From contig CAZLUZ010000018.1 in the NCBI GenBank assembly GCA_964562825.1, positions 1-24,000 on the forward strand: 24,000 nt of DNA, given 5' to 3'. This document shows, one piece after another, positions 1,544-13,129 of the stretch. Position 1 is the first letter of the stretch, and every line of letters begins with the position of its first letter. Below the pieces are notes generated by a model. The model did not search any database and was not told where the DNA came from. It was given only the letters and a program-made list of their open reading frames with translations. The position numbers were made by a program, and so were the translations under genes. This DNA comes from an uncultured Akkermansia sp. (lineage in GTDB: Bacteria; Verrucomicrobiota; Verrucomicrobiia; Verrucomicrobiales; DEV007).

Positions 1544-3346
1544 TTATCTGTCCAGTCCATGGGCCTTGCGGATCGCATGGACCACGCCGGCGCCGAGGAA
1601 GCGATCGCCGACCCGCGGGGCGATCCTGGTCAGATCGACGATCATCAGTCCGTCGAGACAGCCGGAGAACTTGGCGTCGACGTTGAAACCGAGGTAGGTG
1701 GCGTGAAATTTGGTGTATTGGCGGAGGAGGATAGGCACGCCTTTCCCGTCCTGTTCCAGGCTGCCCACCGCCGCGTCGATCTGCTCGATGGTCTCCAGTC
1801 CCTCCGCGATTTCACCGAGGCGGTCCCGAGTCCGACTTGACGTCTCCCGATCCACCGACCGGCTCCCCGGCCGAACGAGGTGGGCGAAATCCGTGGAGAA
1901 AGCGTGTTTTTCCAGAAACTGCACCATGAGATTGCGGGAGACAGGCAGGTAGTTGCCGCTGATGCTGACCGCTCCGAAAGCGTAGCGGAAACGCGGGTTC
2001 CGGCGAAGAAACTCGCCGATTCCGAGGAAAAGCATGCCCAGCGAGAGGTAGCCTTTCTGGCATTCCTCGACCACGAAAGAGCGTCCCAACTCCACGGCGG
2101 GACCGCCCAGGCTGTGAAAAAACTCCCGCTTGTAGCGGAACAGACTGCGGGTGTAGAGGCCCTGCACGCCGCGCCGCTCCGTGATCTCGTCGGATGGCCC
2201 CAGGCGATAGGCCCCGCCGATCTGTCTCGTCTCCCCATTCCACAGGAAGAGGTGCTGGTACCATTGATCGTACTCGTCGAGGTCGATGGCCTGTCCCGTT
2301 CCCTCGCCCACACTGCGGAAGGTCTTCTCCCGCAGTCTGCCGATCTCGCGGAGCACCCGGGGAATTTCGGCGGCCCCCGCGATGAAGCACCGCCAGGCGC
2401 CGCGGGTCAACAGGAGACGATCTTCTGGCAGAGCGGCGATTTCGACCTCCAACCCGTCGGGTTCGACAGGAAGGACAAGCGGTTCGAGCTCCGCCGGGCT
2501 CAGCTTCTTTCCCTCGCGGGTGACCTGCCAGCGTTTCTCCCGCGAAGCGGTGCCGAGAAGTTCCACGTGCCGCTGAACGAACGCGGCCCCTTTTTCGTAA
2601 TCGGCACGCGGGATGCGCCGTGCCGGAATCGGTCGACCGATCTCGATCCGGATGGTCCGGCCGCTCAGCCTTCGGAATTCGCGAAGCAACTGGGCGGTGC
2701 GCAGCAGGGGATGAACCAGTCCCGCGGCATGGAAAAAGACACTGTTGCGTCCCTCGAAATGAACCGGAACCACATCGGCCCCGCTTTTCGCCACCATCTG
2801 GATGAGGTGCTTCGACCACGCCTTTTCCCTGATCCGGCGCTCGGCGAAAGAGAAATGAGCCACTTCTCCGGCGGGAAAGAGACCGATGAGTCCGCCCGAT
2901 TGGAGATGAGCCAGCGCATCGCGCAGGCCGGCGATATTCCTCCGCGCTGCGCCCGCGCCGCCGAAGGGGTCAACGGGAATGAGGATATCCCGGGCCTCCG
3001 GCATGGCGGCGATGAGGGAGTTGCCCAGGAGCCGGGCATCGGAACGCCTGCGCAGCAGGACCTCCGCAAGAATGAGCGCGTCCGCGACCCCGAAGGGATG
3101 ATTGGAGACCACGATGACCGGTCCCTTCGCGGGAATTCGGGCCAGGGCGTCCTCCGTGACCTCGTAGTGGATGCCGAGGTGCGCCAGGCTGTCGGCGAGG
3201 AAAGCTCCTCCCTCCGTGTCATGATTTTCCCGGACCTCCCGGTAGCTTTTGTTAAACCAATCGAAGGCGAGCCACCGGGCCACCGGGCGCACCAGGAAGT
3301 CGGGCATTCGGCTGCCGAGGACGGCGTTTTCGTCAATCGGATTCAT
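1544..3346 (-). CDS. OlsF-like bifunctional lipid acyltransferase: N-terminal PlsC/LPLAT-type O-acyltransferase domain plus C-terminal OlsB-like GNAT N-acyltransferase domain
   Basis: HX4D acyltransferase motif NHPFGVAD (nt 3080-3103) and a FPAGEV block. The C-terminal half has OlsB/hemolysin-like GNAT signatures (DLDEYDQWYQHLFLWN, IGGAYRLG, ELGRSFV). Start is set at ATG 3346 (MNPIDEN...), which forms an ATGA overlap with the upstream stop. The track start at 3472 would overlap the upstream gene by about 130 nt. The amino-acid substrate cannot be read from the sequence. Confidence 0.7.
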   Translation of the reverse strand: MNPIDENAVLGSRMPDFLVRPVARWLAFDWFNKSYREVRENHDTEGGAFLADSLAHLGIHYEVTEDALARIPAKGPVIVVSNHPFGVADALILAEVLLRRRSDARLLGNSLIAAMPEARDILIPVDPFGGAGAARRNIAGLRDALAHLQSGGLIGLFPAGEVAHFSFAERRIREKAWSKHLIQMVAKSGADVVPVHFEGRNSVFFHAAGLVHPLLRTAQLLREFRRLSGRTIRIEIGRPIPARRIPRADYEKGAAFVQRHVELLGTASREKRWQVTREGKKLSPAELEPLVLPVEPDGLEVEIAALPEDRLLLTRGAWRCFIAGAAEIPRVLREIGRLREKTFRSVGEGTGQAIDLDEYDQWYQHLFLWNGETRQIGGAYRLGPSDEITERRGVQGLYTRSLFRYKREFFHSLGGPAVELGRSFVVEECQKGYLSLGMLFLGIGEFLRRNPRFRYAFGAVSISGNYLPVSRNLMVQFLEKHAFSTDFAHLVRPGSRSVDRETSSRTRDRLGEIAEGLETIEQIDAAVGSLEQDGKGVPILLRQYTKFHATYLGFNVDAKFSGCLDGLMIVDLTRIAPRVGDRFLGAGVVHAIRKAHGLDR

Positions 3347-5877
3347 CGAAGAGGGGCTTCGAAGCGTTTGGCGGCCTGATAAGCCTTGATGTTGCCCCAG
3401 AGATCGAGAAAGGAGGGCTCCGGGCAGCCCCGGGCGCGATTCTTCGCCCCGATCTCGTAACAGAGTTCCCATTGCCGGCGCAGGATGGCGAGAGCCTGCG
3501 AAAAGGTGTGGTCCGGATCGTAGATCGCGGTGGCTTCCGAGGTCACCCCGTTGAGTTCCAGGATAAGGATGCCGCGACCGGCCCGGAGTTCCTCCTCAGA
3601 GGGAGCTTTCAGATCAAACCGGCCGAAGTGAAATCCGGCGAAAGAGCGCGCGATCCGGTCGATTTCCCGGGTCAGGCGGGGGGTGATCAGGTCATCTCCC
3701 GAGAGAAAAAGCGCACCGCGGGAATGCGTTCCCAGCCGACTCAGGAGCAATCTCTCTCCCTGGGCGGGAACGGTCCCCAGGTGCTGCCGGAACTGGCGAA
3801 GAAAAAAATCGGCCATGAGACGGGCCCGCGGATGGGACAGGATGAGTTCCTCGATCGTGCTCCTGCCATCTCCCACCACGGAGACCGATTTCTTTCTCGT
3901 GATGGAAAAGATGCGGCCCTCGGCGTCCTCCGGGTGCCGGTAGTAGAAGACTCCGAACTCGGGACCCTCGACATACTGCTGGGCGACGACGGGCTCGGTC
4001 GCACCGGAAACGGCGAAGTATTCCTCCACCTCGCGGTCGCTATGGACGATGGCCACGCCCTTTCCCCGTTCCCCGCAAACGGGTTTGAGCACGATCGGAT
4101 AGCGCGGGTCGGAAATACGGTGCATAAATTCTTTCACCTCCGCGGCGGACGACACCAGGGCGAACGCCGGCAGGTTGCCGCTCTCCCGCAGAGCCTCCAG
4201 GCTGATTCGTTTCGGTTCGTGGGCGAAGCCTCCGCAGGGGAGAGCCGGATTCGCCGCCGCGAACACCGTGGCCGAGCGGTGCCGCAGGGCGAGAAACACC
4301 GCGTGGGGCAGCAAGGCCAGGTAGAGAATCCAGGCGGGCCAGAACTCCCATCGGGTCCGTCGATCCCAGCGTGCGGCGAAAAGCCGTCTCTGCCGCGGGT
4401 CGGAGAGGATCGATACCCCACGCACCACGAGGAGGAGCGCCCCGACGAGACCGAGCAGACCCACGATAATGTAGTTCTCGTGGTCCTCGAACCAGGGCAG
4501 GAACACGTGTCCGAAGACGGCCGAAAGCCCCACCAGGATCGGTGTCCAGATGGCGGCGGCGAGGAGAAACCAGAAGAGGAACTTTTTCAGGCAGACCCCG
4601 GCGGCACCCATTCCCACGTAGACGGGAAGTCGCGAACCCGGGATGAAGCGGGTGGCGATGATGACCTTGGCCCCGTTGGCGTCGAGCCATCGGCGACCGG
4701 AATCGATCTTGTCCTTTGGGGCGATCCAACGCAGGGGGGCGCGTTCCAGGGCGCGCGGACCGAGCCATTTTCCGAGGAGGAAAAGAGTGATATCTCCCAG
4801 AAAGATCCCCGCGAGGCAGCCGGCCACGGCGGTGGCGAAGTGGAGAACGCCCCGGGACGTCAGCAGACCGCCCGAAATGCAGGCGAGGTCCTCGCTGGCC
4901 AAGGTCGCGATGCCGAGGAGCAACATGGTCGCCACTGCCCCGGCGGGCGATCCGTCGAGTCGCCTCAATTCCGCGGGCCTTTCCGCATCCACCACCCGCG
5001 AAAGCGTCGCTCCGCTGCGCCGGGGACCCGGTTCCCGAGCAAATCGGGCGATCGGGGCGGCAACTTCCGCGGGGCGCCGCATCAGATCGATGTGATTTCC
5101 TCCCTCGATCCAGACCAGCTGACTCTGGGGAACGATGCGGTGGTGCTCTCGTGCGGCCGATCCGGGCACGAGACGGTCGTGTTCTCCTTGGATGATCAGG
5201 GTGGGTCCGGTCCAGGTCTCGAGCAGGCTCCGCAGGGGGCGTTGATCGGTCTCGTAGAAGTTTCGCGCGTAGTTCCGGTTGAGCATCGCGCTGTCCCACC
5301 ATCCGAAATGGGGAACGCCTTCCTGGATGAGGGTGATCGCGGCGAGTTGAAGGCCGTGGATAGCGTGGTTGAGCACATAGTCGCCCAGCAGTTCGTGTTC
5401 CTGGACCCCGATGGAGGCGAGCAGGACCAGACCGGAGATCCGCTCGGGAGCCAGGTGGGCCAGATGGATGGCCACGCCTCCCCCCATGGAGTAGCCCACC
5501 GGAATCACGTTCTCCAGGTCCCTTTGTCGGAGCCATTTGGCGAGGTAATGGGCATGCGCCTCGATGGATAGATCCTCGACCCGTTGCTCCGATCGCCCGA
5601 AGCCGGGCAGATCGGGGATCAGGAGGGGAAACTCCCCTTCCAGTTGCGCGGCGAGGGGCGCGAAGATGCCCGGCATGGTCGGGCTCCCGTGAATGAGCAG
5701 CAGGGTGGGGCCTTCGGCGGCTCCCGATTCGCGAAAGGCCAGCCTGTCGCCCAGCACGGTGGTGGCTTCCTGCCCCGGTAGCGGACCCGGAGCATCCTGG
5801 ACCTGCCGGTAGACGTGGGAGAGTGCCAGCAGAATCACGTAGACGAGAAGGATCACCCTTTTCCAGCGGCCTTTCAT
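3343..5877 (-). CDS. Triple-fusion membrane protein: N-terminal TM anchor + alpha/beta hydrolase domain, central DedA/VTT (SNARE-associated) membrane domain, C-terminal ATP-grasp ligase domain (844 aa)
   Basis: Hydrolase: LLLIHGSPT, nucleophile elbow GYSMGGG (Ser codon 5488-5490), later GEHDRLVP and GGNHIDL as candidate Asp/His. DedA: LGDITLFLLGKWLG and VIIATRFIPGSRLPVYVGMGAAG with flanking hydrophobic helices. ATP-grasp: PIVLKPVCGERGKGVAIV, VVAQQYVEGPEFGVFYY, ILELNGVTSEATAIYD. Start is set at ATG 5877 (MKGRWKRVILLVYVILLAL...), in an ATGA overlap with the upstream stop. The 109-aa N-terminal extension in the track is Arg/Pro/Gly-rich and overlaps the upstream gene. Confidence 0.75.
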   Translation of the reverse strand: MKGRWKRVILLVYVILLALSHVYRQVQDAPGPLPGQEATTVLGDRLAFRESGAAEGPTLLLIHGSPTMPGIFAPLAAQLEGEFPLLIPDLPGFGRSEQRVEDLSIEAHAHYLAKWLRQRDLENVIPVGYSMGGGVAIHLAHLAPERISGLVLLASIGVQEHELLGDYVLNHAIHGLQLAAITLIQEGVPHFGWWDSAMLNRNYARNFYETDQRPLRSLLETWTGPTLIIQGEHDRLVPGSAAREHHRIVPQSQLVWIEGGNHIDLMRRPAEVAAPIARFAREPGPRRSGATLSRVVDAERPAELRRLDGSPAGAVATMLLLGIATLASEDLACISGGLLTSRGVLHFATAVAGCLAGIFLGDITLFLLGKWLGPRALERAPLRWIAPKDKIDSGRRWLDANGAKVIIATRFIPGSRLPVYVGMGAAGVCLKKFLFWFLLAAAIWTPILVGLSAVFGHVFLPWFEDHENYIIVGLLGLVGALLLVVRGVSILSDPRQRRLFAARWDRRTRWEFWPAWILYLALLPHAVFLALRHRSATVFAAANPALPCGGFAHEPKRISLEALRESGNLPAFALVSSAAEVKEFMHRISDPRYPIVLKPVCGERGKGVAIVHSDREVEEYFAVSGATEPVVAQQYVEGPEFGVFYYRHPEDAEGRIFSITRKKSVSVVGDGRSTIEELILSHPRARLMADFFLRQFRQHLGTVPAQGERLLLSRLGTHSRGALFLSGDDLITPRLTREIDRIARSFAGFHFGRFDLKAPSEEELRAGRGILILELNGVTSEATAIYDPDHTFSQALAILRRQWELCYEIGAKNRARGCPEPSFLDLWGNIKAYQAAKRFEAPLR

Positions 5878-6605
5878 GGCCTGGAGGAGGGAAAAGGAGA
5901 CTTCACCCCCAGCCGGGTCGTCGCCCCCCACGCCCAGTCCGGTGCCGTGGCGTAGGAATAGGCGGCGCGATTTCCCCGCCCGATTTTGATCCGGCTGAGG
6001 CTCACGGTATGCGCGTCCTCCCGGGACATGATGGTGGAGAAAGCGGAATGGCTGGCATCGAACCAGCGATGGAAGGACTCGCCACCACCGGTTTGGCGAT
6101 AGGCGTCGCGACGCGCGGCCGTCACCTCGGCGGTCTCGAAAGACGAAGTTGTCAGGGGTAGCTCGGCCGGGCGCCGTTGGAGCTGGCCAGCATCCCACCG
6201 CCACAGGCCGGCTGTCCGGGAGTTCAGTGCCACAAAAAGAAAGGGTCGGAACCGTCCTTTCTCCACCCTATCCGCGAGCCAATCGCCCGAGGCTTCGGGG
6301 TCCGCCAGCAAGGATGCGGCCTCCACGACGAGTCTGCCGCGGCTGGTGTAATCTCGTCCATCGGGATCGGGGAGAGGAGAACCGCTGTAGTGGTTGAGCA
6401 GGGCAAAGCAGGTTCCCGCCTCGTTCACCGCCAGCCAGGAGCCTCCGCCTTCGGGGTCAATGCAGGAGATCCAGCGGAAGTCACCATCCGGCCGTTGCTG
6501 GACGAGGGGACCGGTGGCCGCGGCACGCGACCTCGATTCGTCTCGGTTGAACCAGATGGTGAGAGTTTCCCCGGTCCGGGACCGTTGCCAGCTCATGGTG
6601 CACAT
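5874..6605 (-). CDS. NRDE family protein (TANGO2-like, Ntn-hydrolase-like fold with N-terminal Met-Cys)
   Basis: Begins MCT..., carries the eponymous motif WFNRDESRSR, then GGGSWLAVNEAGTCFALLNHY. This follows the pattern MC...NRDE..R...GG(T/S)WL......L(T/L)N of the TANGO2/NRDE family. The stop overlaps the next start (ATGA at 5874-5877). Confidence 0.85.
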   Translation of the reverse strand: MCTMSWQRSRTGETLTIWFNRDESRSRAAATGPLVQQRPDGDFRWISCIDPEGGGSWLAVNEAGTCFALLNHYSGSPLPDPDGRDYTSRGRLVVEAASLLADPEASGDWLADRVEKGRFRPFLFVALNSRTAGLWRWDAGQLQRRPAELPLTTSSFETAEVTAARRDAYRQTGGGESFHRWFDASHSAFSTIMSREDAHTVSLSRIKIGRGNRAAYSYATAPDWAWGATTRLGVKSPFPSSRP

Positions 6606-6638
6606 CGCGTTGCTCCGGGATCGTTCGGCGACCGCCGT

Positions 6639-7181
6639 TCAGGCGGACAAGGACTGCCGCTGCGCCGTTTCTCTCCGGAACTGAACCGTGGAAGGAGCGA
6701 GTCCGAACTCCTCATCGAGGACGATTCCCTCGCGCCGGCACATGATTGCGAGGATGGCGTAGTGATGCACCGCGTGGCTGAGGACGAACTGGAGTTCGCG
6801 CCCGATGGAGGAGTCCTGCCATTCGTCGGGATCATCCGAGGAAGCGTTGGACCGAACCCGGCAACGCATTCCGGGATCGATCCGGAGGCGGAGATCCTCG
6901 AGTAGTGCGATGGTTTCGTCGAAAGCTGCGATGGCGGCGACCAGCTTCGTCTCCACCACGATATCGCGTTCCCGGGCGTCGTAGTCGACGAGGTAGGGCG
7001 CCTCCATACCGGCGACAAGCCTCTGGTAGTGTTCGATGATGTGGCGGCAGTGGCCGCCGAAGGAGGCGCCGAGGAACTCGGCAGAGACGTGCGCGTACCG
7101 AGCTTGATCGATCCTCCGGAGCAGGGCCGAGGCCTGACCGAGACAGACGATGTTTGCCGCAAACAAATCGGGTCGGTTCAT
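6639..7181 (-). CDS. DinB-like (DinB_2 / four-helix-bundle metal-binding superfamily) protein
   Basis: About 180 aa with the His pattern of DinB-type bundles (GGHCRHIIEHYQ near the N-terminus, LSHAVHHYAILAIM near the C-terminus). Start is set at ATG 7181 (MNRPDLF...). It lies 33 nt upstream of the NRDE gene on the same strand. The family call is by eye only. Confidence 0.5.
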   Translation of the reverse strand: MNRPDLFAANIVCLGQASALLRRIDQARYAHVSAEFLGASFGGHCRHIIEHYQRLVAGMEAPYLVDYDARERDIVVETKLVAAIAAFDETIALLEDLRLRIDPGMRCRVRSNASSDDPDEWQDSSIGRELQFVLSHAVHHYAILAIMCRREGIVLDEEFGLAPSTVQFRRETAQRQSLSA

Positions 7182-7264
7182 GGTGCAAAAAATGCCACGG
7201 GGCGAATCTCCGCACACGGGCGGGTGTTGTCACCAGAAATTCTTTCCCCGGGTAGGTCCGATTG

Positions 7265-8044
7265 TCAGGGCAGATCGTCGATGCGCCGGATCCCCGTTTC
7301 TGGGTCGGTGGCGACGAATAGCAGGCTGCCACATCGGCTCACCTTTCCCGTCACCTCAACCGGTTCTGCGACGAGGTCCAGAATCTGTTCGTTGATCGCC
7401 TCGCCGTTGACGCCCGTCATGATGAGCTTGGTCACGCTGCCATCCTCGCCGCGGAGCAGCAGCATGGGCGGGACACCTCCCTTGATGCAGTGGATGGCGC
7501 AGGCGCGGTGCGGTTTGAGCACCCCGGGATTCATCACGCCGAGGTAGCATTTGCTGTCCACGATCTCGCCTCTGAGGGTCTGGGACCCGAAGTCCACGAA
7601 TTCGCCCAGACTGACATCGGCGGGCCGGGTCGATTTCTGCACCGATCCGTCGATCACCTCCAGCATGGCGTTTCCCCCATCGTGGATCAGCGTGCCTCTG
7701 AGGTCCACCGCCTCCAGGTGAAAGGTCTCCGCCACCTCGGGGTCGAAGCCGTACTTCAGCGGACGCACCAGGAGGAACACCGACTGTTGGCTATCGGGTT
7801 CCGGCTCCGGGGTGAGGAGCATGGGGACCGGGTTGGCGACGAGGACCCCGGAAAATTCGCGGACGTTGCCGAACTGGAACTGTCCGATGCCGAGAGTGCT
7901 CTGAAAGAGCGGGAATACCGCCGCGAGAAGCATTGCCGCCCCGAGAATGAGGCCGGTGCGCAGCCGGAGGAAGCCGGCGATACCCGGAGGGGGCGTTTTC
8001 TCCCAACCGATGAAAAATTCGGGTGCGTTCTTTTCTGTGCTCAT
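7265..8044 (-). CDS. Hypothetical membrane-anchored protein with an extracytoplasmic domain carrying a C-x16-C-x3-C motif
   Basis: The N-terminus has RLR followed by one hydrophobic helix (GLILGAAMLLAAVFPLF). The C-terminal part contains SKCYLGVMNPGVLKPHRACAIHCIKGGVPP and a fourth Cys (VSRCGS). No family was recognised. The start ATG 8044 overlaps the stop of the Rieske/FRD gene (ATGA at 8041-8044). Codon third positions are GC-rich. Confidence 0.6.
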   Translation of the reverse strand: MSTEKNAPEFFIGWEKTPPPGIAGFLRLRTGLILGAAMLLAAVFPLFQSTLGIGQFQFGNVREFSGVLVANPVPMLLTPEPEPDSQQSVFLLVRPLKYGFDPEVAETFHLEAVDLRGTLIHDGGNAMLEVIDGSVQKSTRPADVSLGEFVDFGSQTLRGEIVDSKCYLGVMNPGVLKPHRACAIHCIKGGVPPMLLLRGEDGSVTKLIMTGVNGEAINEQILDLVAEPVEVTGKVSRCGSLLFVATDPETGIRRIDDLP

Positions 8045-9075
8045 GAGATGCTTGCCGGTTCAATGGGGGTGCCCGCCGGATGCGGGGTGGGGTGGACATA
8101 AACCGTACCATTGGCGATACGGACGTCGAAAGTGGGAATTTTTTCGGTGAAAGGTGCCGGGGACGTTCCATCCTCGGGGCGATACTGATAACCATGCCAG
8201 GGGCAGGTCAGGCATCCGTGAATGAATTTTCCCTCGGCGAGGGGGCCATTCTGGTGCTGACAGACTCCCGAGACAGCCGAGACCTTTCCCTCGTACTTCA
8301 CCACCGCCACCTTCTCCCCGCCGAGCACCACTCCGTGGGCCGCGTTTTCCGGGATGTCGGCCACCGCGCAGACTTCGACGAATCCGTCCTCGGTGGGATG
8401 ATTCGCGAGGGGACGGTCCCGGGGAAACTCGCGAAATCCGGCGGTGAGGTGGAGGCCGGCGATGGCGAGGAAGCCCGCGATGAGCAGGCCGGTGTAGAGG
8501 GGGTGCGTCTCGGACTGGAGCACCCCGAAAGCGACGTGAACGACCAGCAGCGCATAGGCCACATACACACCCATGTGCAGCGATTTCCACACCGGTGCGG
8601 TCAGGTTGGCCAGCCAGAAATCATGGCTCGTCGCCGCCATGGTGAAGAGGATGAGGAGGGCGAAAAAGCCAAAGGCCTGGAAGGGGAAGGCGCTCATGGT
8701 TGCGCCCGCATCCGTCGTGAAAATGGTCAGGATGGGGTTCGAGTCCGATCCGACGTGGTAGGTGATGACGGCAAGGGCGGAGTGAAAGAAAGCCAGGAGG
8801 AACATGGTCACCCCGAGGTGGCGCCGATTGTAGAGGATGGGCAGCCACCTGCGGTCCAGCCGAGCCAGGGGCCCCACCATGAGGATGAAGTGCAGGAGGA
8901 TGATCGCGCCCGAACCGAAGGCGCGGATCAGCATGATCTCTATGGTGGCGGAGGGACTGATCGCGAGACTGATTCCGGTGAAGAGGGCGACGTAGAGGAT
9001 GGCGGCGACAGCCAGCCAGAGATCGAAGCGCAGCTTGAAGGGATTCCATCCCACGGCTTTGTAGGAAACACTCAT
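8041..9075 (-). CDS. Ferric-reductase-like six-TM (heme b type) domain fused to a C-terminal Rieske [2Fe-2S] domain
   Basis: Six hydrophobic helices, with paired His in helices 3 and 5 (RRHLGVTMFLLAFFH; HMGVYVAYALLVVH), as in the FRD/NOX/MsrQ family. The C-terminus carries both Rieske boxes: CQHQNGPL (about 8241-8265) and CPWHGYQY (about 8190-8213). Confidence 0.8.
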   Translation of the reverse strand: MSVSYKAVGWNPFKLRFDLWLAVAAILYVALFTGISLAISPSATIEIMLIRAFGSGAIILLHFILMVGPLARLDRRWLPILYNRRHLGVTMFLLAFFHSALAVITYHVGSDSNPILTIFTTDAGATMSAFPFQAFGFFALLILFTMAATSHDFWLANLTAPVWKSLHMGVYVAYALLVVHVAFGVLQSETHPLYTGLLIAGFLAIAGLHLTAGFREFPRDRPLANHPTEDGFVEVCAVADIPENAAHGVVLGGEKVAVVKYEGKVSAVSGVCQHQNGPLAEGKFIHGCLTCPWHGYQYRPEDGTSPAPFTEKIPTFDVRIANGTVYVHPTPHPAGTPIEPASIS

Positions 9076-9215
9076 GAGGGATCTTGAAGAGGGATGGGCA
9101 GATTCTGCGTGGGAAAGCGGGGCCGGTTCAGGATCGCGTAGCCGATCGCAAAGGCGATCACGATGGTGAGCACGAACCAGAGGGTGAGGTGTCTCTTGCG
9201 GTGGTAGCGTTGCAT
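9072..9215 (-). CDS. Small single-TM protein, 47 aa (not in the supplied ORF track)
   Basis: My own translation of the minus strand gives ATG at 9215 -> MQRYHRKRHLTLWFVLTIVIAFAIGYAILNRPRFPTQNLPIPLQDPS-stop. It has a basic N-terminus and one hydrophobic helix. It starts 4 nt after the stop of the 84-aa gene, and its TGA overlaps the ATG of the Rieske/FRD gene (ATGA at 9072-9075), so it exactly fills the gap. Confidence 0.45.
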   Translation of the reverse strand: MQRYHRKRHLTLWFVLTIVIAFAIGYAILNRPRFPTQNLPIPLQDPS

Positions 9216-9219
9216 GGGA

Positions 9220-9474
9220 TCAGGGTCTGGAATTCGCGATCCGACGGTGCCGAGACTTTTCCTCAGGGGGCGTTTCCCGGCTGACCCACCGTTTCAGGAG
9301 CAGAGGCCAGAAGATCGCCGCGCCGGGAATGATGATGAGTCGGAAGCTCCAGGTGCCCGACTTCGCCGATGGATCGATGGCGCCGGCTCCACCGAAGCAG
9401 GAGAAGACGATGGCGAAAAGCAAGCCGAGGAGCAGGTAGATGCCGAGGAGGGATAGAAAGATCTCAAGTAGCAT
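9220..9474 (-). CDS. Small two-TM membrane protein, 84 aa
   Basis: MLLEIFLSLLGIYLLLGLLFAIVFSCF... and ...FRLIIIPGAAIFWPLLLKRW form two hydrophobic helices. Start is set at ATG 9474, which overlaps the malic-enzyme 3' end by 11 nt. The longer track version (start 9600) would run about 135 nt into the malic enzyme gene. Confidence 0.55.
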   Translation of the reverse strand: MLLEIFLSLLGIYLLLGLLFAIVFSCFGGAGAIDPSAKSGTWSFRLIIIPGAAIFWPLLLKRWVSRETPPEEKSRHRRIANSRP

Positions 9475-10669
9475 GGTTCGAGGGAGTTTGCCCGCCATCG
9501 CCACTGGCGGCCTGACAGACGGCTCGGGCCACGATGGGAGCGATGGTGGAATCGAGCGGGGAGGGGACAATCCGTTCCGGAGACGGTTCCGCCACCGCAT
9601 CGGCCAGCGCGCGGGCCGCGGCGATCTTCATCTCGGGCGTGATGCGCGGCGCCTGGGCGTCGAGCGCGCCCCGAAAGATTCCGGGGAAGGCGAGCACGTT
9701 GTTCACCTGATTGGGGAAATCGCTGCGTCCGGTGCCGAGCACCGCGGCACCCCCGGCCCTGGCTGCTTCGGGCATGATTTCGGGGATCGGGTTGGCCATC
9801 GCCAGGATGATGGAATCCGGGGCCATCCGGCGGATATCTTCGGTGCGGAGGATGTCGCCTACGCTGACTCCGACGAAGACGTCAGCTTCGTGAAGCACCT
9901 CCGAAAGACTGCCTTTGCGGTTTGATGGGTTGGTGTACCCGAGGAGGTCGCGCTTCCGGGGGTTCAGGTCTTCCCGGTCGCGGTGGATGGCGCCCCGGCT
10001 GTCGCAGATGATCACGTCCGCCACGGGTGTGCAGGTGTCCGCAGACTGGTCGATGCATCGGAGCAGTTTCGCGATGGCGGTTCCGGCCGCGCCTGCTCCG
10101 TTGATGACCACCCTCAGATTTTCCACGGGTTTGCCCACGACCCGAGCCGCGTTGAGCATGGCGGCGAGGAGCACAATAGCGGTGCCGTGCTGGTCGTCGT
10201 GGAAGACCGGGATGCCCAGATCCTGGAGTCTCTCCTCCACCTCGAAGCACCGGGGTGCCGAGATATCCTCCAGGTTGATTCCGCCGAACACCGGCGCGAT
10301 CCGGCGAACCGTATCCACGACCTCATCGGCGTCCTGGGTGTCGAGGCAGATGGGAAAAGCGTCGATGTTGGCGTATTGCTTGAAAAGCAGGGCCTTCCCC
10401 TCCATCACCGGAATAGCCGCGTAAGGTCCGATGTTGCCCAGGCCGAGAACGGCCGAACCGTCACTGACCACGGCGACGGCATTTCGCTTGATCGTCAGAT
10501 CGCGCACCTTTTCGGGATGTCTCGCGATCTCCTCACAGGGCCTCGCCACCCCAGGGGTGTAGGCGATGGAGAGATCGTCGATGGTTTCGACGGGAAGTTT
10601 CGGAGTCACCGAGATTTTGCCTCGGAGCTGTTCGTGAATGAGCAGGGAGCGTTCGCCAAAATCCATCAT
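9464..10669 (-). CDS. NAD(P)-dependent malic enzyme (short prokaryotic form, oxaloacetate-decarboxylating malate dehydrogenase)
   Basis: Family-typical blocks run throughout: LSIAYTPGVARPC, VVSDGSAVLGLGNIGPYAAIPVMEGKALLFK, FGGINLEDISAPRCFEVE, VFHDDQHGTAIV, INGAGAAGTAI, LAMANPIPEI, NNVLAFPGIFRGALD. Confidence 0.93.
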   Translation of the reverse strand: MMDFGERSLLIHEQLRGKISVTPKLPVETIDDLSIAYTPGVARPCEEIARHPEKVRDLTIKRNAVAVVSDGSAVLGLGNIGPYAAIPVMEGKALLFKQYANIDAFPICLDTQDADEVVDTVRRIAPVFGGINLEDISAPRCFEVEERLQDLGIPVFHDDQHGTAIVLLAAMLNAARVVGKPVENLRVVINGAGAAGTAIAKLLRCIDQSADTCTPVADVIICDSRGAIHRDREDLNPRKRDLLGYTNPSNRKGSLSEVLHEADVFVGVSVGDILRTEDIRRMAPDSIILAMANPIPEIMPEAARAGGAAVLGTGRSDFPNQVNNVLAFPGIFRGALDAQAPRITPEMKIAAARALADAVAEPSPERIVPSPLDSTIAPIVARAVCQAASGDGGQTPSNHAT

Positions 10670-10684
10670 CTACAGAGTGCAAGG

Positions 10685-12664
10685 TTACACGAGGAGAGCA
10701 TCTGTCATCACCTCGATGGTGGCGGGGCCGGGATAGTCCCGGCAGACGGCGAGCGCCTCATCCAGCTGCTGGCGTTCCGAGACTCGAATCCCTTTACCGC
10801 CGCAGAGATTCACGTAGTCCGCAAAGTTCGGATTGTGCAGCCCGGTCTTCCAGACCTCGAAGTGTCCCGCCCGCTGTTCTTTCGAAATTTTGCCCAATTC
10901 ACCGTTGTGCATGAGGATGTGGGTAATGTTCATCCCGTATTTCACCGCGGTGAGGACTTCCATCATGTATTGGGCGAACCCGCCATCCCCGGTCACCGCC
11001 CAGACGGGTCGTCCGGCATAAGCGGGATCGTCCTCCTGGGTGGCGGCCCACGCGCCCATCGCCGCCGGGTATCCGAACCCGATCGATCCCAGGTAACCGG
11101 ACATGAGGACCGCCTGCCGGTCGCTGCTCTCGAAGTAGCGCCCGAAGGAGTAAGTGTTGTTGCCCACGTCGACGGCGATGATGGCATCCTCCTGGCACTG
11201 ACGGGTCATCGCGTCGAACAGGGCGGCGGCACTGATCCCTTTACCGGAGTCGTCGGGGATGCGGCTGGCCTTTTCCTTTCTCCAGATTTCCCAGCGACGG
11301 GCTACCTCCTCGCGTATCCCGGGACGCGGCACCGCGTTGGGAAAACGTTGCCCGAGGATGTCCAGGGTCCGGCCGATCTCCCCGAGAACGGGCAGATCGA
11401 CGGAGTGGAACTTGCCCAGTTGCATGGGATCGAAATCGATCTGAATCGTCGGCATGTAGCTGGCGATGCCGGTGTGGTTGGAAAAGGATGCGCCGATGGC
11501 GATGATGAGGTCGCACTCATTCATGAACCAGCTGGCGATCGGTGTCCCCGACCGTCCCAGAACGCCACAACCCAGCGGATGCGAATCCGAGATCAGGCCT
11601 TTTCCCTTGAAGGTGGTGAGCACAGGAATTTCGAGTCTTTCGGCGAACCGGATGATGGACTCCATGTGAAATCGTGCTCCGTGCCCTACGATGATGATGG
11701 GCCGTTGCGCCTCTCGGATGCGGTTTTCCGCCGCGGCTATGCTGGCCTCCGACGGGGCCACCGAGAGGTCGGCGAGGCGTCCGTCGGGGTGGCCGGGCTT
11801 GCCCTCCGTATTCTCGATTTCCTGAACCTCATTGGGGAGCACGAGGGTCACCGGGTTCCGGGTGAGGAGCGCGTTCTTGAGAGCCAGCGACATCAGTTCG
11901 CCGTGGCGGGAATCCGCGTAGACGGTGTGGTTGAAGGCCGAGACATCCTCGAAAGCGTTGGCCAGGTCGATCTCCTGGAAAGCCCCCGGTCCGAGCACCT
12001 GGGTGTCGATCTGTCCCGACAGCGCGAGGAGTGGCGCCCGATCCACTTTCGCGTCGTAAAGGCCGGTCATCAGGTTGGTTGCTCCGGGGCCCGCGATGGA
12101 GAAACAGGCGGCCGGTCTGCCGGTCAGTTTGGCGTAGGCGGAGCAGGCAAAGGATGCGGCTCCCTCGTGCCGGATGCCGTAAAACCGAAGGTTGCCCTGC
12201 TCCTCCTGGACCCGCAGCGCATCGGCCATGCCCAGGTTGGAGTGGCCCACCATGCCGAAGACCTGCCTGACCCCCCAATTCACCATGGTCTCGGCGAGGA
12301 CATCCGAGTTGGTCCGAGCCCTCTCGGGTTCCGGTTCCAGACCGACATAGATGCCGTCCTCCCGCTCCTCGACAGGATAGGTGATGAGACGGTCGTCGTG
12401 CCCGCCGGGCGACTGACCGGTGAGAGGATCAAAATCCCAACCGTGCCAGGGACAACGCAGCCAGCAACGACCCTCCGCCCCATCCTCGATCGAACCCTCG
12501 CCGAGCGGACCACCCTGGTGGGGGCAGGCGTTATCGAGCGCGCCGTACCGGCCCTGGTATTTGGAAAGGGCTATGGTGCGGGTGCCCGCGGAGATGGTGG
12601 TCACCCGTCTCTCCTCCAATCCGGGAGGGTCGAGGACTTTGTGCCAGACGAGTGCTTCGCTCAT
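10685..12664 (-). CDS. Rieske [2Fe-2S] domain fused to a thiamine-pyrophosphate enzyme of the pyruvate oxidase / acetolactate synthase superfamily
   Basis: N-terminal Rieske boxes CPHQGGPL (about 12504-12536) and CPWHGWDF (about 12431-12470). A three-domain TPP enzyme follows: Pyr domain VFGMVGHSNLGMADAL...IRHEGAASFACSAYAKLTG...GPGATNL, a middle domain IIIVGHGARF...TTFKGKG, and PP domain GSIGFGYPAAMGA...VTGDGGFAQYMMEVLTAVKYGMNITHILMHNGELGKI. The substrate is not deducible by eye. Confidence 0.85.
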   Translation of the reverse strand: MSEALVWHKVLDPPGLEERRVTTISAGTRTIALSKYQGRYGALDNACPHQGGPLGEGSIEDGAEGRCWLRCPWHGWDFDPLTGQSPGGHDDRLITYPVEEREDGIYVGLEPEPERARTNSDVLAETMVNWGVRQVFGMVGHSNLGMADALRVQEEQGNLRFYGIRHEGAASFACSAYAKLTGRPAACFSIAGPGATNLMTGLYDAKVDRAPLLALSGQIDTQVLGPGAFQEIDLANAFEDVSAFNHTVYADSRHGELMSLALKNALLTRNPVTLVLPNEVQEIENTEGKPGHPDGRLADLSVAPSEASIAAAENRIREAQRPIIIVGHGARFHMESIIRFAERLEIPVLTTFKGKGLISDSHPLGCGVLGRSGTPIASWFMNECDLIIAIGASFSNHTGIASYMPTIQIDFDPMQLGKFHSVDLPVLGEIGRTLDILGQRFPNAVPRPGIREEVARRWEIWRKEKASRIPDDSGKGISAAALFDAMTRQCQEDAIIAVDVGNNTYSFGRYFESSDRQAVLMSGYLGSIGFGYPAAMGAWAATQEDDPAYAGRPVWAVTGDGGFAQYMMEVLTAVKYGMNITHILMHNGELGKISKEQRAGHFEVWKTGLHNPNFADYVNLCGGKGIRVSERQQLDEALAVCRDYPGPATIEVMTDALLV

Positions 12665-12739: not shown

Positions 12740-13129
12740 TCAGGAAGGGTCCAATCGGGCAACCGCGAGAGGCGTGTTGAAACGCGTGCACCAGATCCAG
12801 ACCTCGTTGAACCTTGCGGGATCGAGGCCGGAAGGTAAAGCATAAGTCTGTTTCCCCGTGTTTTTCTCGAGTTTGCCGAGCCGGGATTTTTTGTCGTAGC
12901 CGTCCTTGCCGAGGGCGACGACCGGGGCAGGGGCGCCGTCGAAGAAGAAGTCTCCGGCGAAAGTCAACCGATAGGAACCGCTCTCCTCCTTCTCGATAGA
13001 GACGGTGCCACGGGCCTCGTGGTCGGAGCGGCCCTCCAAGTTCCCGGATCGGGTGTCCTGAGCAGAGCCGAATGACGTCGCGGCCAGAGCCGCGGTTGCG
13101 ATGATGGTGAGAAGGAGGGAGTTTTGCAT
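12740..13129 (-). CDS. Secreted DM13 domain protein (putative electron-transfer DM13 family)
   Basis: Signal-peptide-like N-terminus MQNSLLLTIIATAALAATSFGSAQD. The body matches the DM13 pattern (H..RG.V.I......Y.L.F...F....GP.. V.L, then LGKL....G.Q.Y.LP, then NEVWIWCTRFNTPLAVARL). Confidence 0.75.
   Translation of the reverse strand: MQNSLLLTIIATAALAATSFGSAQDTRSGNLEGRSDHEARGTVSIEKEESGSYRLTFAGDFFFDGAPAPVVALGKDGYDKKSRLGKLEKNTGKQTYALPSGLDPARFNEVWIWCTRFNTPLAVARLDPS

Follow-up and report, generated by a model that had tools for sequence, protein, structure and literature searches.

Judged by gene order across genomes, the conserved unit at this locus is a core of four genes, not six, encoding an 84-aa membrane protein, a small single-helix protein, a ferric-reductase-domain protein fused to a Rieske domain (FRD::Rieske) and an anchored Cys protein of ~255 aa. 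The core is widespread and uncharacterised, and as a membrane module it probably carries electrons outward via an iron-sulfur domain and two haems. We place at roughly 0.5 the probability that the locus is a conserved inner-membrane electron-export complex, built from the four-gene core and supplied by a cytoplasmic Rieske-tagged flavoenzyme. A functional description of the four-gene module was not found in the literature searched, and for the FRD and Rieske architecture Zhang et al. 2013 (PMC3591440) give no more than an entry as domain model M4.

The six minus-strand genes of the sequence-only reading, with their domains and all of their junctions, are as originally described (open reading frames, Pfam and reading of the sequence). 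Within the window, the whole 24,000-nt stretch that was analysed, these genes and their neighbours are arranged as follows.

12740-13129, minus: secreted DM13-domain protein, 129 aa (Pfam DM13, 'Electron transfer DM13', E 2.8e-10)
10685-12664, minus: Rieske::TPP flavoenzyme-like protein, 659 aa (ORF list and Pfam)
9464-10669, minus: short-type malic enzyme, 401 aa (ORF list and Pfam)
9220-9474, minus: 84-aa two-TM membrane protein, core subunit 1 (ORF from an internal ATG)
9072-9215, minus: 47-aa single-TM protein, core subunit 2 (ORF list and hydropathy)
8041-9075, minus: FRD::Rieske, 344 aa (ORF list and Pfam)
7265-8044, minus: membrane-anchored periplasmic Cys-motif protein, 259 aa (ORF list and hydropathy)
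6639-7217, minus: DinB_2 protein (Pfam)
5874-6605, minus: TANGO2-like protein, starting Met-Cys (Pfam)
3343-5877, minus: alpha/beta-hydrolase-VTT/DedA-ATP-grasp fusion (Pfam)
1544-~3472, minus: acyltransferase with Acetyltransf_5, judged OlsF-like (Pfam)

The longest reading frame of the 84-aa gene extends to 9600, the 84 residues being counted from the internal ATG. Reading of the sequence places the 84-aa and 47-aa genes 4 nt apart, with ATGA overlaps at the junctions of FRD::Rieske with the 47-aa and 259-aa genes. Tight same-strand packing goes on beyond 7265-12664 on both sides, upstream to the DM13 gene (75-nt gap) and RlmN and downstream through DinB_2 (47-nt gap) and TANGO2 (33-nt gap) to an ATGA overlap into the hydrolase-VTT-ATP-grasp gene, which starts at 5877, and spacing alone therefore sets no six-gene limit. 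Promoter and terminator scans of the locus with consensus motifs gave matches at chance level.

Conservation of the core was surveyed in 84 FRD-centred loci with flanks of ±8-10 kb. The Cys-motif gene adjoins FRD::Rieske in 80 of them, homologues of the 84-aa protein lie upstream in 74 (tblastn), and nearly every locus has a reading frame of 30-60 or 150-210 aa running up to or into the FRD start, usually with an ATGA overlap. This linkage spans at least eight phyla, with synteny seen in Verrucomicrobiota, Acidobacteriota, Gemmatimonadota, Bacteroidota, Myxococcota, Planctomycetota, Kiritimatiellae and others. In relatives across many phyla the last four genes keep one order, so the arrangement is more than chance. 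Domain content, predicted topology, conservation, synteny and fusions were established by the analysis.

FRD::Rieske is proposed as the transmembrane electron conduit, a six-TM ferric-reductase-domain cytochrome b with a cytoplasmic Rieske domain. Both domains are recognised by Pfam (Ferric_reduct, 42.8 bits against a cut-off of 28; Rieske, 62.9 bits), and a hydropathy scan gives six TM segments with K+R counts per loop of 3/0/5/0/1/0 followed by a basic C-terminal linker, which by the positive-inside rule places both termini, and thus the Rieske domain, in the cytoplasm. Identity between phyla exceeds 50%, and the invariant residues are H86, H98, H107, H151, H167, H180 and H209 together with C272, H274, C291 and H294. 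The positions of H86/H98 and H167/H180 would fit a stack of two b haems spanning the membrane, in line with the b haems that had been proposed for this six-TM fusion, though the cofactor set may differ from this simple model since seven histidines are invariant and two haems need four. When the predicted structure (AF2 pLDDT 88) is compared with solved ones, its Rieske domain overlays Rieske ferredoxins of dioxygenases, 2qpz and CarAc among them, at TMt ~0.85 and an rmsd of 2 A, and the CarAc-CarAa complex 2de5 is among the top matches; the Rieske domains belong to the dioxygenase-ferredoxin type.

The 259-aa protein is proposed as the periplasmic electron acceptor or terminal reductase. It has one N-terminal TM anchor (hydropathy scan) followed by two beta-barrel, OB-like domains (AF2 pLDDT 90), and carries the invariant motif GEIVDSKCxLGxMNPGxxxxHRACAIxCIxGGxPP (C166, M171, H179, C182, C186). 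Foldseek against the PDB returned weak OB-fold matches (E >= 0.007) and no sequence relative was found there; clustered at 50% identity, the family has 2521 representatives, and the top 150 checked showed no other architecture. In several 50%-identity families the Cys protein is fused to FRD::Rieske (P0094, P0274, P0325, P0385), an arrangement that requires a cytoplasmic Rieske and a periplasmic Cys domain and agrees with the positive-inside count. Judged by adjacency and fusion, the Cys-motif protein is an obligate partner of FRD::Rieske, as its placement in the earlier scheme implied. The three-Cys/one-His site could be structural zinc rather than a redox centre.

Neither of the small membrane subunits nor the 259-aa protein matched a family in Pfam or NCBIfam. 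By hydropathy the 84-aa protein has two TM segments and a basic C-terminal tail with eight K+R that is predicted to be cytoplasmic. The 47-aa protein has one TM segment and four K+R within its first nine residues, with its N-terminus inside, and is the short form of a protein that in many other phyla is 150-210 aa long, with a TM segment and a periplasmic domain.

The 659-aa protein is the proposed cytoplasmic electron-input module at this locus. An N-terminal Rieske ferredoxin-type domain (CPH...CPWH; Pfam 50.6 bits) is fused to a TPP enzyme of the POX/ALS superfamily (TPP_enzyme_N/M/C), which in NCBIfam scores best against pyruvate oxidase PRK08611 (380 bits, under the cut-off of 742); every NCBIfam equivalog score, POX models included, is below cut-off. 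The closest solved relatives are E. coli PoxB, a pyruvate:ubiquinone oxidoreductase (3eya, E 3e-61), and Lactobacillus pyruvate oxidase (1pox, E 2e-54), TPP/FAD enzymes that catalyse the oxidative decarboxylation of pyruvate and hand the electrons to an external acceptor. The 3eya alignment stops at residue 526 of 572, so that the C-terminal, lipid-binding membrane peptide of PoxB has no counterpart here, and unlike PoxB the enzyme carries the Rieske domain. By similarity the TPP moiety is nearest to PoxB/POX, and the substrate may be pyruvate; the wider family also includes non-redox FAD-binding members, for example ALS.

Full-length Rieske::TPP homologues number at least 8000 in a protein search and at least 587 confirmed among the pattern-matched metagenome stretches listed. 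The gene lies beside the core in 11 of the 84 FRD-centred loci, and linkage is found in a Verrucomicrobial clade (L003, L005, L008, L030, L082, L085, L087 and L165-L167), directly before the 84-aa gene in all of these except L008 and L087. Approximately 22 of the best 45 TPP homologues lie on contigs of the same length as those of FRD or Cys-protein matches. Outside Verrucomicrobia, the core is near Rieske::TPP in one of 22 loci that have at least 4 kb on both sides. The linkage of the two Rieske fusions proposed at the outset holds in the Verrucomicrobial clade and is rare outside it: Rieske::TPP neighbours the core mainly in Verrucomicrobia.

Other flavoenzymes share this position. A Rieske::glutamate-synthase-like (GltS-like) FMN enzyme is near the core in 16 of the 84 FRD-centred loci, occurring together with Rieske::TPP at L082, L165 and L166, and one or other Rieske enzyme is present in 19, in varying orders and orientations; we estimate at ~0.3% the chance that two single-copy genes in a ~5 Mb genome lie within ~16 kb of each other. 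Rieske::FMN_red lies directly upstream of the 84-aa gene in L011, where its reading frame ends about where the 84-aa match begins, and farther from the core in L060, while plain FMN_red is directly upstream of the core in L027, L034, L038 and L046. Weighing against a donor in this slot, the gene upstream of the core in Acidobacteriota encodes an SDR, which by itself is unable to reduce a Rieske centre. The varied flavoenzymes in the slot next to the core support interchangeable cytoplasmic donors to FRD::Rieske, of which the thiamine enzyme is probably one.

In the proposed chain, a 2-oxoacid, perhaps pyruvate, would be oxidatively decarboxylated on the TPP of the 659-aa enzyme, and electrons would pass from its flavin to its own Rieske domain and then to the cytoplasmic Rieske domain of FRD::Rieske. 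Dioxygenase ferredoxins likewise relay electrons between a flavoprotein and a second Rieske centre. The electrons would cross the membrane via a pair of bis-His b haems, H86/H167 on the inner and H98/H180 on the outer side, to the 259-aa protein in the periplasm; its invariant Cys/His/Met site is probably the acceptor, or the catalytic centre acting on a periplasmic substrate. In other lineages the Rieske::GltS-like enzyme, Rieske::FMN-reductase or plain NAD(P)H-FMN reductases would provide the input. From these data we infer cofactor loading, direction of flow, partner contacts, substrate and acceptor, the putative haem, FeS and flavin occupancy being read from motifs.

It should be noted that the core could instead be an autonomous, MsrQ-like FRD system fed by quinol or an unlinked reductase, with Rieske::TPP and the malic enzyme mere neighbours using their own soluble acceptor. 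Neither Rieske-fused enzyme was found within ±8-10 kb in 65 of the 84 core loci, most Rieske::TPP genes in the metagenome sample have no nearby core, and there are solitary TPP genes (L168, L169) and a core alone (L083). However, four flavoprotein types, three of them Rieske-fused, recur on the same strand immediately upstream of the 84-aa gene in unrelated phyla, a recurrence that would be difficult to account for if there were no functional link, and FRD::Rieske itself lacks a flavin or NAD(P)H domain, so that its cytoplasmic Rieske domain needs a donor; we consider autonomy rather unlikely. A different unlikely arrangement would have the Rieske-fused enzymes mainly trading electrons with each other, Rieske::TPP oxidising a 2-oxoacid to power reductive amination of 2-oxoglutarate on the Rieske::GltS-like FMN/[3Fe-4S] enzyme (or, alternatively, the pair oxidising glutamate to succinate) and the membrane module serving only as an overflow valve. 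Rieske::TPP adjoins Rieske::GltS-like in 33 of the 80 TPP-centred loci and in 13 of the 22 with ample flanks, where the latter is its commonest partner outside Verrucomicrobia, an adjacency far commoner than that of TPP with the core; a representative GltS-like sequence carries CLGMRACNSNNC, with the C-x5-C-x4-C spacing of the [3Fe-4S] ligands in glutamate synthase. Yet no GltS-like gene was found in the window, and loci in which TPP accompanies the core while the flanks contain no GltS (L005, L167), or GltS accompanies it and TPP is absent (L059, L066, L069, L070, L081), indicate that each enzyme pairs with the core independently.

The literal six-gene route of the sequence-only reading, in which malate is converted to pyruvate for the TPP enzyme and the membrane module with the malic enzyme (Pfam malic and Malic_M) as an integral member, is quite improbable. 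Its spacing is close, with a 15-nt gap after the TPP gene and an 11-nt overlap with the 84-aa gene, the TPP-malic-84-aa order recurs in L008 and L087 (L086 being an incomplete locus), and in L010 the malic enzyme lies directly upstream of a core without TPP. Against it, the malic enzyme is present in only 2/84 FRD-centred and 3/80 TPP-centred loci and 0/22 well-flanked TPP loci, and was not found at the equivalent position in L003, L005, L030, L082, L085 or L165-L167, all with TPP and core; the sub-threshold POX scores of the TPP enzyme also weigh against this route. Since the few loci with a malic enzyme near core or TPP are nearly all close relatives, the malate-to-pyruvate step is weakly supported. 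By its distribution the malic enzyme is a lineage-specific insertion outside the conserved system; it may supply pyruvate to the TPP enzyme, a possibility for that lineage and not the logic of the system. The earlier interpretation is supported for the topology and putative haem histidines of FRD::Rieske, the Cys-protein partnership and the Verrucomicrobial TPP link, and is not supported for the six-gene unit and a dedicated malate route.

Returning to the export complex fed by interchangeable flavoenzymes, we rate the core as a variant of FRD-type (NOX/MsrQ-like) electron transfer. As in MsrPQ (YedYZ) with Fre, an FRD-family haem-b membrane protein feeds a dedicated periplasmic partner encoded beside it, and a separate cytoplasmic flavoprotein could supply the electrons; MsrQ reportedly receives its electrons from the separate flavin reductase Fre (Juillan-Binard et al. 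2017). Unlike MsrPQ, there is no MsrP/molybdoenzyme gene at this locus, FRD::Rieske scores 38.8 bits on the NCBIfam MsrQ model (cut-off 130), carries a fused Rieske domain and has both His pairs, which suggests two haems, the partner in the periplasm is an unrelated Cys/His protein of OB-like fold, and the core has two extra small membrane subunits. With NOX, FRE and bacterial SpNOX the module would share a six-TM FRD core whose His pairs lie on TM3 and TM5, one-electron transfer from the cytoplasm to the outside and a C-terminal cytoplasmic electron-entry domain. That domain is a Rieske [2Fe-2S] domain in place of the FAD/NADPH dehydrogenase domain, so the reductase is a separate protein, and there is a dedicated periplasmic partner, direct O2 or Fe(III) reduction not being evident. 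Three-component Rieske dioxygenase chains run from a flavoprotein reductase through a Rieske ferredoxin to the Rieske centre of the oxygenase (CarAd/CarAc/CarAa, BphA4/A3/A1). The Rieske domains here are structurally of this ferredoxin type and the proposed flavin-Rieske-Rieske hand-over would be the same chemistry; in contrast to those chains, an oxygenase alpha subunit is absent, the Rieske centre that would receive the electrons is joined to a transmembrane dihaem domain, and the donor Rieske is fused to catabolic flavoenzymes.

The DM13 protein, which has a hydrophobic N-terminal signal-like segment (hydropathy scan), is a possible accessory periplasmic redox partner of uncertain membership. 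In L165 and L086 a DM13 gene precedes the enzyme genes on their strand, and there are further matches in L005 (coordinates on the opposite strand) and L067. On its 3' side the core adjoins a second conserved module (1544-7217, minus), and its components recur in the FRD-centred loci in varying order (DinB in 30/84, hydrolase/ATP-grasp in 30/84 and TANGO2 in 21/84).

The six genes at 7265-12664, with their domains and junctions, were recovered by ORF listing, family scans and junction reading exactly as the sequence-only reading had described them.

Genes at 7265-12664, in minus-strand order
10685-12664, minus strand: Rieske::TPP enzyme, 659 aa, with Rieske and TPP_enzyme_N/M/C domains
9464-10669, minus strand: malic enzyme, 401 aa, with malic and Malic_M domains
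9220-9474, minus strand: 84-aa protein with 2 TM helices
9072-9215, minus strand: 47-aa protein with 1 TM helix
8041-9075, minus strand: FRD::Rieske protein, 344 aa, with Ferric_reduct and Rieske domains
7265-8044, minus strand: 259-aa protein with an N-terminal anchor and without a family match

From the TPP gene onward, the junctions read from the sequence give spacings of +15, -11, +4, -4 (ATGA) and -4 (ATGA) nt. The compact same-strand run extends beyond these genes, upstream to RlmN and a secreted DM13 gene, 75 nt before the TPP gene, and downstream of the 259-aa gene to DinB_2 (+47), a TANGO2-like gene (+33) and an ATGA overlap into an alpha/beta-hydrolase-VTT-ATP-grasp fusion gene. As the packing runs past both ends of the interval, spacing by itself does not delimit six genes. 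Consensus scans found 1 promoter-like element (1.4 expected) and 12 terminator-like elements (11 expected), counts at the level of chance that are uninformative for this phylum, and an Rfam scan of the whole window returned no element and so no riboswitch clue. The boundaries of the proposed six-gene operon, and the entry of electrons from malate through pyruvate, are not borne out by comparison with other genomes: five genes (the TPP gene and the four membrane genes) are co-linear in Verrucomicrobial relatives, the malic enzyme is found in only a few loci, mostly those of close relatives, and in other phyla the TPP gene is swapped for another gene or missing.

The scan for FRD::Rieske, the ferric reductase domain fusion, covered one genome per species and returned over 567 relatives; the 84 loci analysed are the top 80 of them plus four contigs found by exact protein look-up. 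The 259-aa protein is encoded near FRD::Rieske in 80 of the 84 and the 84-aa protein in 74, and a small ORF lies almost universally between the 84-aa gene and FRD::Rieske, usually with an ATGA overlap at the FRD start. All three recur beside FRD::Rieske, and the conserved unit is therefore a four-gene membrane core. Within the same 84 loci, a Rieske::Glu_synthase-like FMN enzyme (GltS-like) is nearby in 16, the Rieske::TPP enzyme in 11, either of these in 19 and the malic enzyme in 2. The core is present in Verrucomicrobiota, Acidobacteriota, Gemmatimonadota, Bacteroidota (Saprospiraceae, Balneolaceae, Fibrisoma), Myxococcota, Planctomycetota, Kiritimatiellae, KSB1 and Spirochaetales, with FRD::Rieske identity above 50% across these soil and marine phyla; the best matches of the window protein are from Verrucomicrobiota (68-74% identity). 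A chance neighbourhood is ruled out, since the association recurs across phyla in varied orders and orientations. Further, FRD::Rieske and the 259-aa protein form a single polypeptide of ~600 aa in several independent families (P0094, P0274, P0325 and P0385, defined at 50% identity). Of the four core proteins, only FRD::Rieske matches a Pfam or NCBIfam family.

The small ORF falls into two size classes, one of 30-60 aa consisting of a TM helix only and one of 150-210 aa with a TM helix and a periplasmic domain. In Acidobacteriota and several other phyla, the longer form replaces the 47-aa protein, with the same N-terminal anchor and a periplasmic domain without a Pfam family (loci L013, L020, L024, L028, L035, L036, L044, L061 and L071, at ~7480-8004 in locus coordinates). 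Where it occurs, an SDR gene is usually found upstream of the 84-aa gene.

The core is probably an FRD-type transmembrane electron-transfer system, and it includes several uncharacterised protein families. FRD::Rieske belongs to the FRD superfamily on the basis of its PF01794 Ferric_reduct score (42.8 bits, cut-off 28) and six hydrophobic segments, which appear in the AF2 model (pLDDT 88) as long helices at 12-39, 45-73, 84-106, 132-148, 160-188 and 192-216. By loop, lysine and arginine together number 3/0/5/0/1/0, and the linker that comes next is basic, a pattern that places both termini inside and therefore the Rieske domain in the cytoplasm. The same topology is demanded by the fusion proteins, in which a seventh helix precedes the Cys domain. 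A periplasmic, Tat-exported Rieske domain was ruled out by the loop charges and the fusion topology, both of which indicate the cytoplasm; twin arginines are not conserved in the anchor of the 259-aa protein. Histidines H86/H98 on TM3 (12 apart) and H167/H180 on TM5 (13 apart) are invariant in sets of 69 and 45 sequences and would suit two bis-His haems, one inner and one outer, with a TM3 spacing shorter than the x13 of NOX. Two b haems would need four histidines; three more are likewise invariant, H107 at the periplasmic end of TM3 and H151 and H209 close to the cytoplasmic face, which hints at an additional cofactor or a partner contact.

The C-terminal domain of FRD::Rieske is a Rieske domain (Pfam Rieske 62.9 bits) with invariant ligands C272-Q-H274 and C291-P-W-H294, and family scans of the protein found no FAD_binding or NAD_binding domain. 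Its Rieske domain is nearest in structure to the Rieske ferredoxins of naphthalene, carbazole and biphenyl dioxygenases (AF2 model; TMt ~0.85, rmsd ~2 Å), and sequence searches agree. These ferredoxins accept electrons from a flavoprotein and pass them to another Rieske centre. In Foldseek searches with the full model the Rieske domain dominates the matches, so that the TM domain is not placed relative to NOX, STEAP or MsrQ.

The 259-aa protein is modelled (AF2, pLDDT 90) as a TM helix followed by two beta-barrels, for which only weak OB-fold matches exist in the PDB. Its family has 2,521 members in a profile search of 1.84 billion representatives (~2,500 clusters at the 50% identity level), and no other domain context occurs among the top 150 profile matches. 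The invariant block GEIVDSKCxLGxMNPGxxxxHRACAIxCIxGGxPP (C166, M171, H179, C182, C186) stands out as a candidate metal or Fe-S site, and its Cys/His residues could equally form a structural zinc site.

The Rieske::TPP enzyme carries the Rieske ligand boxes CPH and CPWH (Pfam Rieske 50.6 bits), which identify a Rieske domain, and all three TPP-enzyme domains. E. coli PoxB and Lactobacillus POX are the closest solved relatives of the TPP moiety, which scores below all NCBIfam equivalog cut-offs (PRK08611, 380 against 742; the ubiquinone-dependent PRK09124, 272 against 792). Alignment to 3eya reaches residue 653 of 659 in the query and 526 of 572 in 3eya, leaving the enzyme without a counterpart of the C-terminal membrane-binding peptide of PoxB. 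The Rieske fusion is only circumstantial evidence for redox chemistry in the TPP enzyme. In the Verrucomicrobial clade nearest to the window, the TPP gene immediately precedes the 84-aa gene in L003, L005, L030, L085, L165, L166 and L167; just a Rieske::GltS-like gene intervenes in L082, and in L008 and L087 a malic enzyme gene does. Of the top 45 TPP homologues (at least 69% identity), about 22 come from contigs equal in length to those of top FRD or 259-aa matches, which is read as the same contig. The linkage of the two Rieske fusions and the idea of an electron relay are well borne out by comparative genomics. In the wider TPP family (60-64% identity, chiefly marine-sediment contigs), the core is seldom nearby. 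In the 22 TPP loci flanked by 4 kb or more on each side, the core occurs once, the Rieske::GltS-like gene 13 times and the malic enzyme never, and solitary TPP genes are found on two Mb-scale contigs. In 25 of 80 metagenome loci (L085-L164; e.g., L110 10020-10865), the next gene after Rieske::TPP, on the same strand, encodes a DUF5996 protein (~281 aa).

The malic enzyme itself is an NAD(P)-malic enzyme, with both domains above cut-off (malic 109.4, Malic_M 93.7 bits) and a match to the NCBIfam NADP-ME model PRK12861 of 368 bits over positions 20-359 of 764. Its placement between the TPP gene and the core is confined to the window, L008 and L087, with the L086 contig ending at this point; in L010, it adjoins the core without a TPP gene. 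The malic enzyme may supply pyruvate in the sub-lineage of the window. The usual companion of the TPP enzyme is glutamate-synthase-like, and 2-oxoglutarate or another 2-oxoacid is therefore at least as plausible a substrate as pyruvate.

The gene content of the slot directly upstream of the 84-aa gene varies by lineage. The Rieske::GltS-like FMN enzyme takes this input position in Bacteroidota, Planctomycetota, Kiritimatiellae and some Verrucomicrobiota, and a representative sequence has CLGMRACNSNNC, with a C-x5-C-x4-C spacing that matches that of the glutamate synthase [3Fe-4S] ligands. A third Rieske-fused flavoprotein, Rieske::FMN_red (388 aa), is encoded in L011 (6088-7251), where the ORF ends at about the start of the 84-aa match, and in L060 (15202-16263), ~7 kb away. 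One or two plain NADPH-FMN reductases, sometimes in tandem, occur in L027 (6537-7085), L034 (6080-7231), L046 (5487-6629) and L038 (6098-6556); in these four loci and, in Rieske-fused form, in L011, FMN reductases are directly upstream of the 84-aa gene. An N-terminal Rieske domain of one kind has thus been gained independently by three different flavoenzymes. As these enzymes adjoin a membrane protein whose sole cytoplasmic domain is a Rieske domain, the Rieske domains are read as hand-over points, and this adjacency is the strongest argument for the hand-over.

In the proposed mechanism, a 2-oxoacid would be oxidised on the TPP/FAD of the Rieske::TPP enzyme, whose own Rieske domain would take up the electrons and hand them to that of FRD::Rieske. 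The electrons would then cross the membrane via two b haems to the periplasmic 259-aa Cys/His protein, which would reduce some acceptor, with the 84-aa and 47-aa proteins as putative structural or assembly subunits. We place the probability of this whole chain at about 0.5, and lower for any named substrate. A broader proposal, offered tentatively and at somewhat less than even odds, is that these genes represent a widespread, previously undescribed class of bacterial transmembrane electron-export complex, with a dihaem FRD, a cytoplasmic Rieske 'socket', two small subunits, a novel periplasmic Cys/His OB-fold reductase and interchangeable Rieske-'plugged' catabolic flavoenzymes (2-oxoacid-oxidising TPP, GltS-like and FMN reductase), that would couple the oxidation of central carbon compounds and amino acids directly to a periplasmic redox reaction while bypassing NAD(H) and quinones.

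The core might instead be autonomous and the Rieske enzymes mere neighbours, given that most core loci have no Rieske enzyme nearby and most enzyme loci no core; however, four flavoprotein types repeatedly and immediately adjoin the core, and this reading is unlikely. The frequent pairing of the TPP and GltS-like enzymes, including tandem genes ahead of the core in L082, L165 and L166, would fit a system in which the two mainly swap electrons between themselves. Yet loci with the core and only one of the two exist for both enzymes and the window has no GltS-like gene, making such an exchange improbable. The literal six-gene malate route, favoured by a few close relatives only, is the most doubtful of the alternatives.

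FRD proteins (NOX, FRE, STEAP and MsrQ) are the main known route for single electrons from the cytoplasm to the cell exterior. As proposed, the core resembles a split NOX or MsrQ-Fre-MsrP: the FRD haem conduit receives electrons from a flavoprotein that is a separate protein in the cytoplasm, and it has a partner of its own in the periplasm. Its input resembles the three-component dioxygenases, in which a reductase feeds a Rieske ferredoxin and then a second Rieske centre. Unlike NOX, FRD::Rieske lacks the C-terminal FAD/NADPH dehydrogenase domain, has a Rieske domain in its place and is not a NOX member. It also differs from MsrPQ, scoring 38.8 bits against the MsrQ model (cut-off 130) and having the 259-aa Cys/His protein, not MsrP, as partner; no molybdoenzyme was present among the cluster genes scanned. 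Nor is the TPP enzyme an equivalog member of PoxB/POX. In the literature searched, no functional study of an FRD+Rieske system was found and the architecture appears only in a domain-architecture listing, as domain model M4 (Zhang et al. 2013, PMC3591440).

The FRD::Rieske family would add a version of the FRD that electrons enter through an iron-sulfur domain, with a periplasmic partner of new fold and with Rieske-tagged dehydrogenases dedicated to it. If correct, the proposal would assign many genes now called 'hypothetical' in Verrucomicrobiota, Acidobacteriota, Bacteroidota, Planctomycetota and further groups, expose a periplasmic redox need (candidates are metal reduction, envelope repair and ROS chemistry) and provide two new enzyme architectures, Rieske::POX-like and Rieske::GltS-like, with testable substrates.

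Several other genes recur in these neighbourhoods. A Na+/H+-exchanger gene lies beside the core or the Rieske enzymes (L082 11797-13062, L165 9063-10325, L166 14238-14834, L084 6215-7489) and, as cluster d3, in 8 TPP-centred loci (e.g., L127 4099-5394); speculatively, it might compensate charge or pH for electron export. The haem conduit may have a periplasmic partner in the secreted DM13 protein ('Electron transfer DM13'), whose gene is just upstream of those for Rieske enzymes in L165 (2823-3206) and L086 (7118-7486) as well as in the window (12740-13129, minus strand).

Directly 3' of the core (window 1544-7217, minus strand) comes another conserved gene set, consisting of DinB_2, a TANGO2-like gene whose product starts Met-Cys, the alpha/beta-hydrolase-VTT(DedA)-ATP-grasp gene (start 5877), ATGA-coupled to the TANGO2-like gene, and an acyltransferase+Acetyltransf_5 gene judged to be OlsF-like. 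This module resembles a pathway for aminolipids or acyl-amino acids and may be tied to the core. A role for TANGO2 as haem chaperone for the FRD was not relied on, as its published functions conflict (haem trafficking, acyl-CoA binding, Cys-Ntn hydrolase). No more than 2-5 kb from the core, DinB is found in 30 of the 84 loci, the hydrolase/ATP-grasp gene also in 30 and TANGO2 in 21, each commoner than the TPP enzyme. In Acidobacteriota, genes for a GNAT (Acetyltransf_5), a YHS-domain protein and an unassigned membrane protein come in between.
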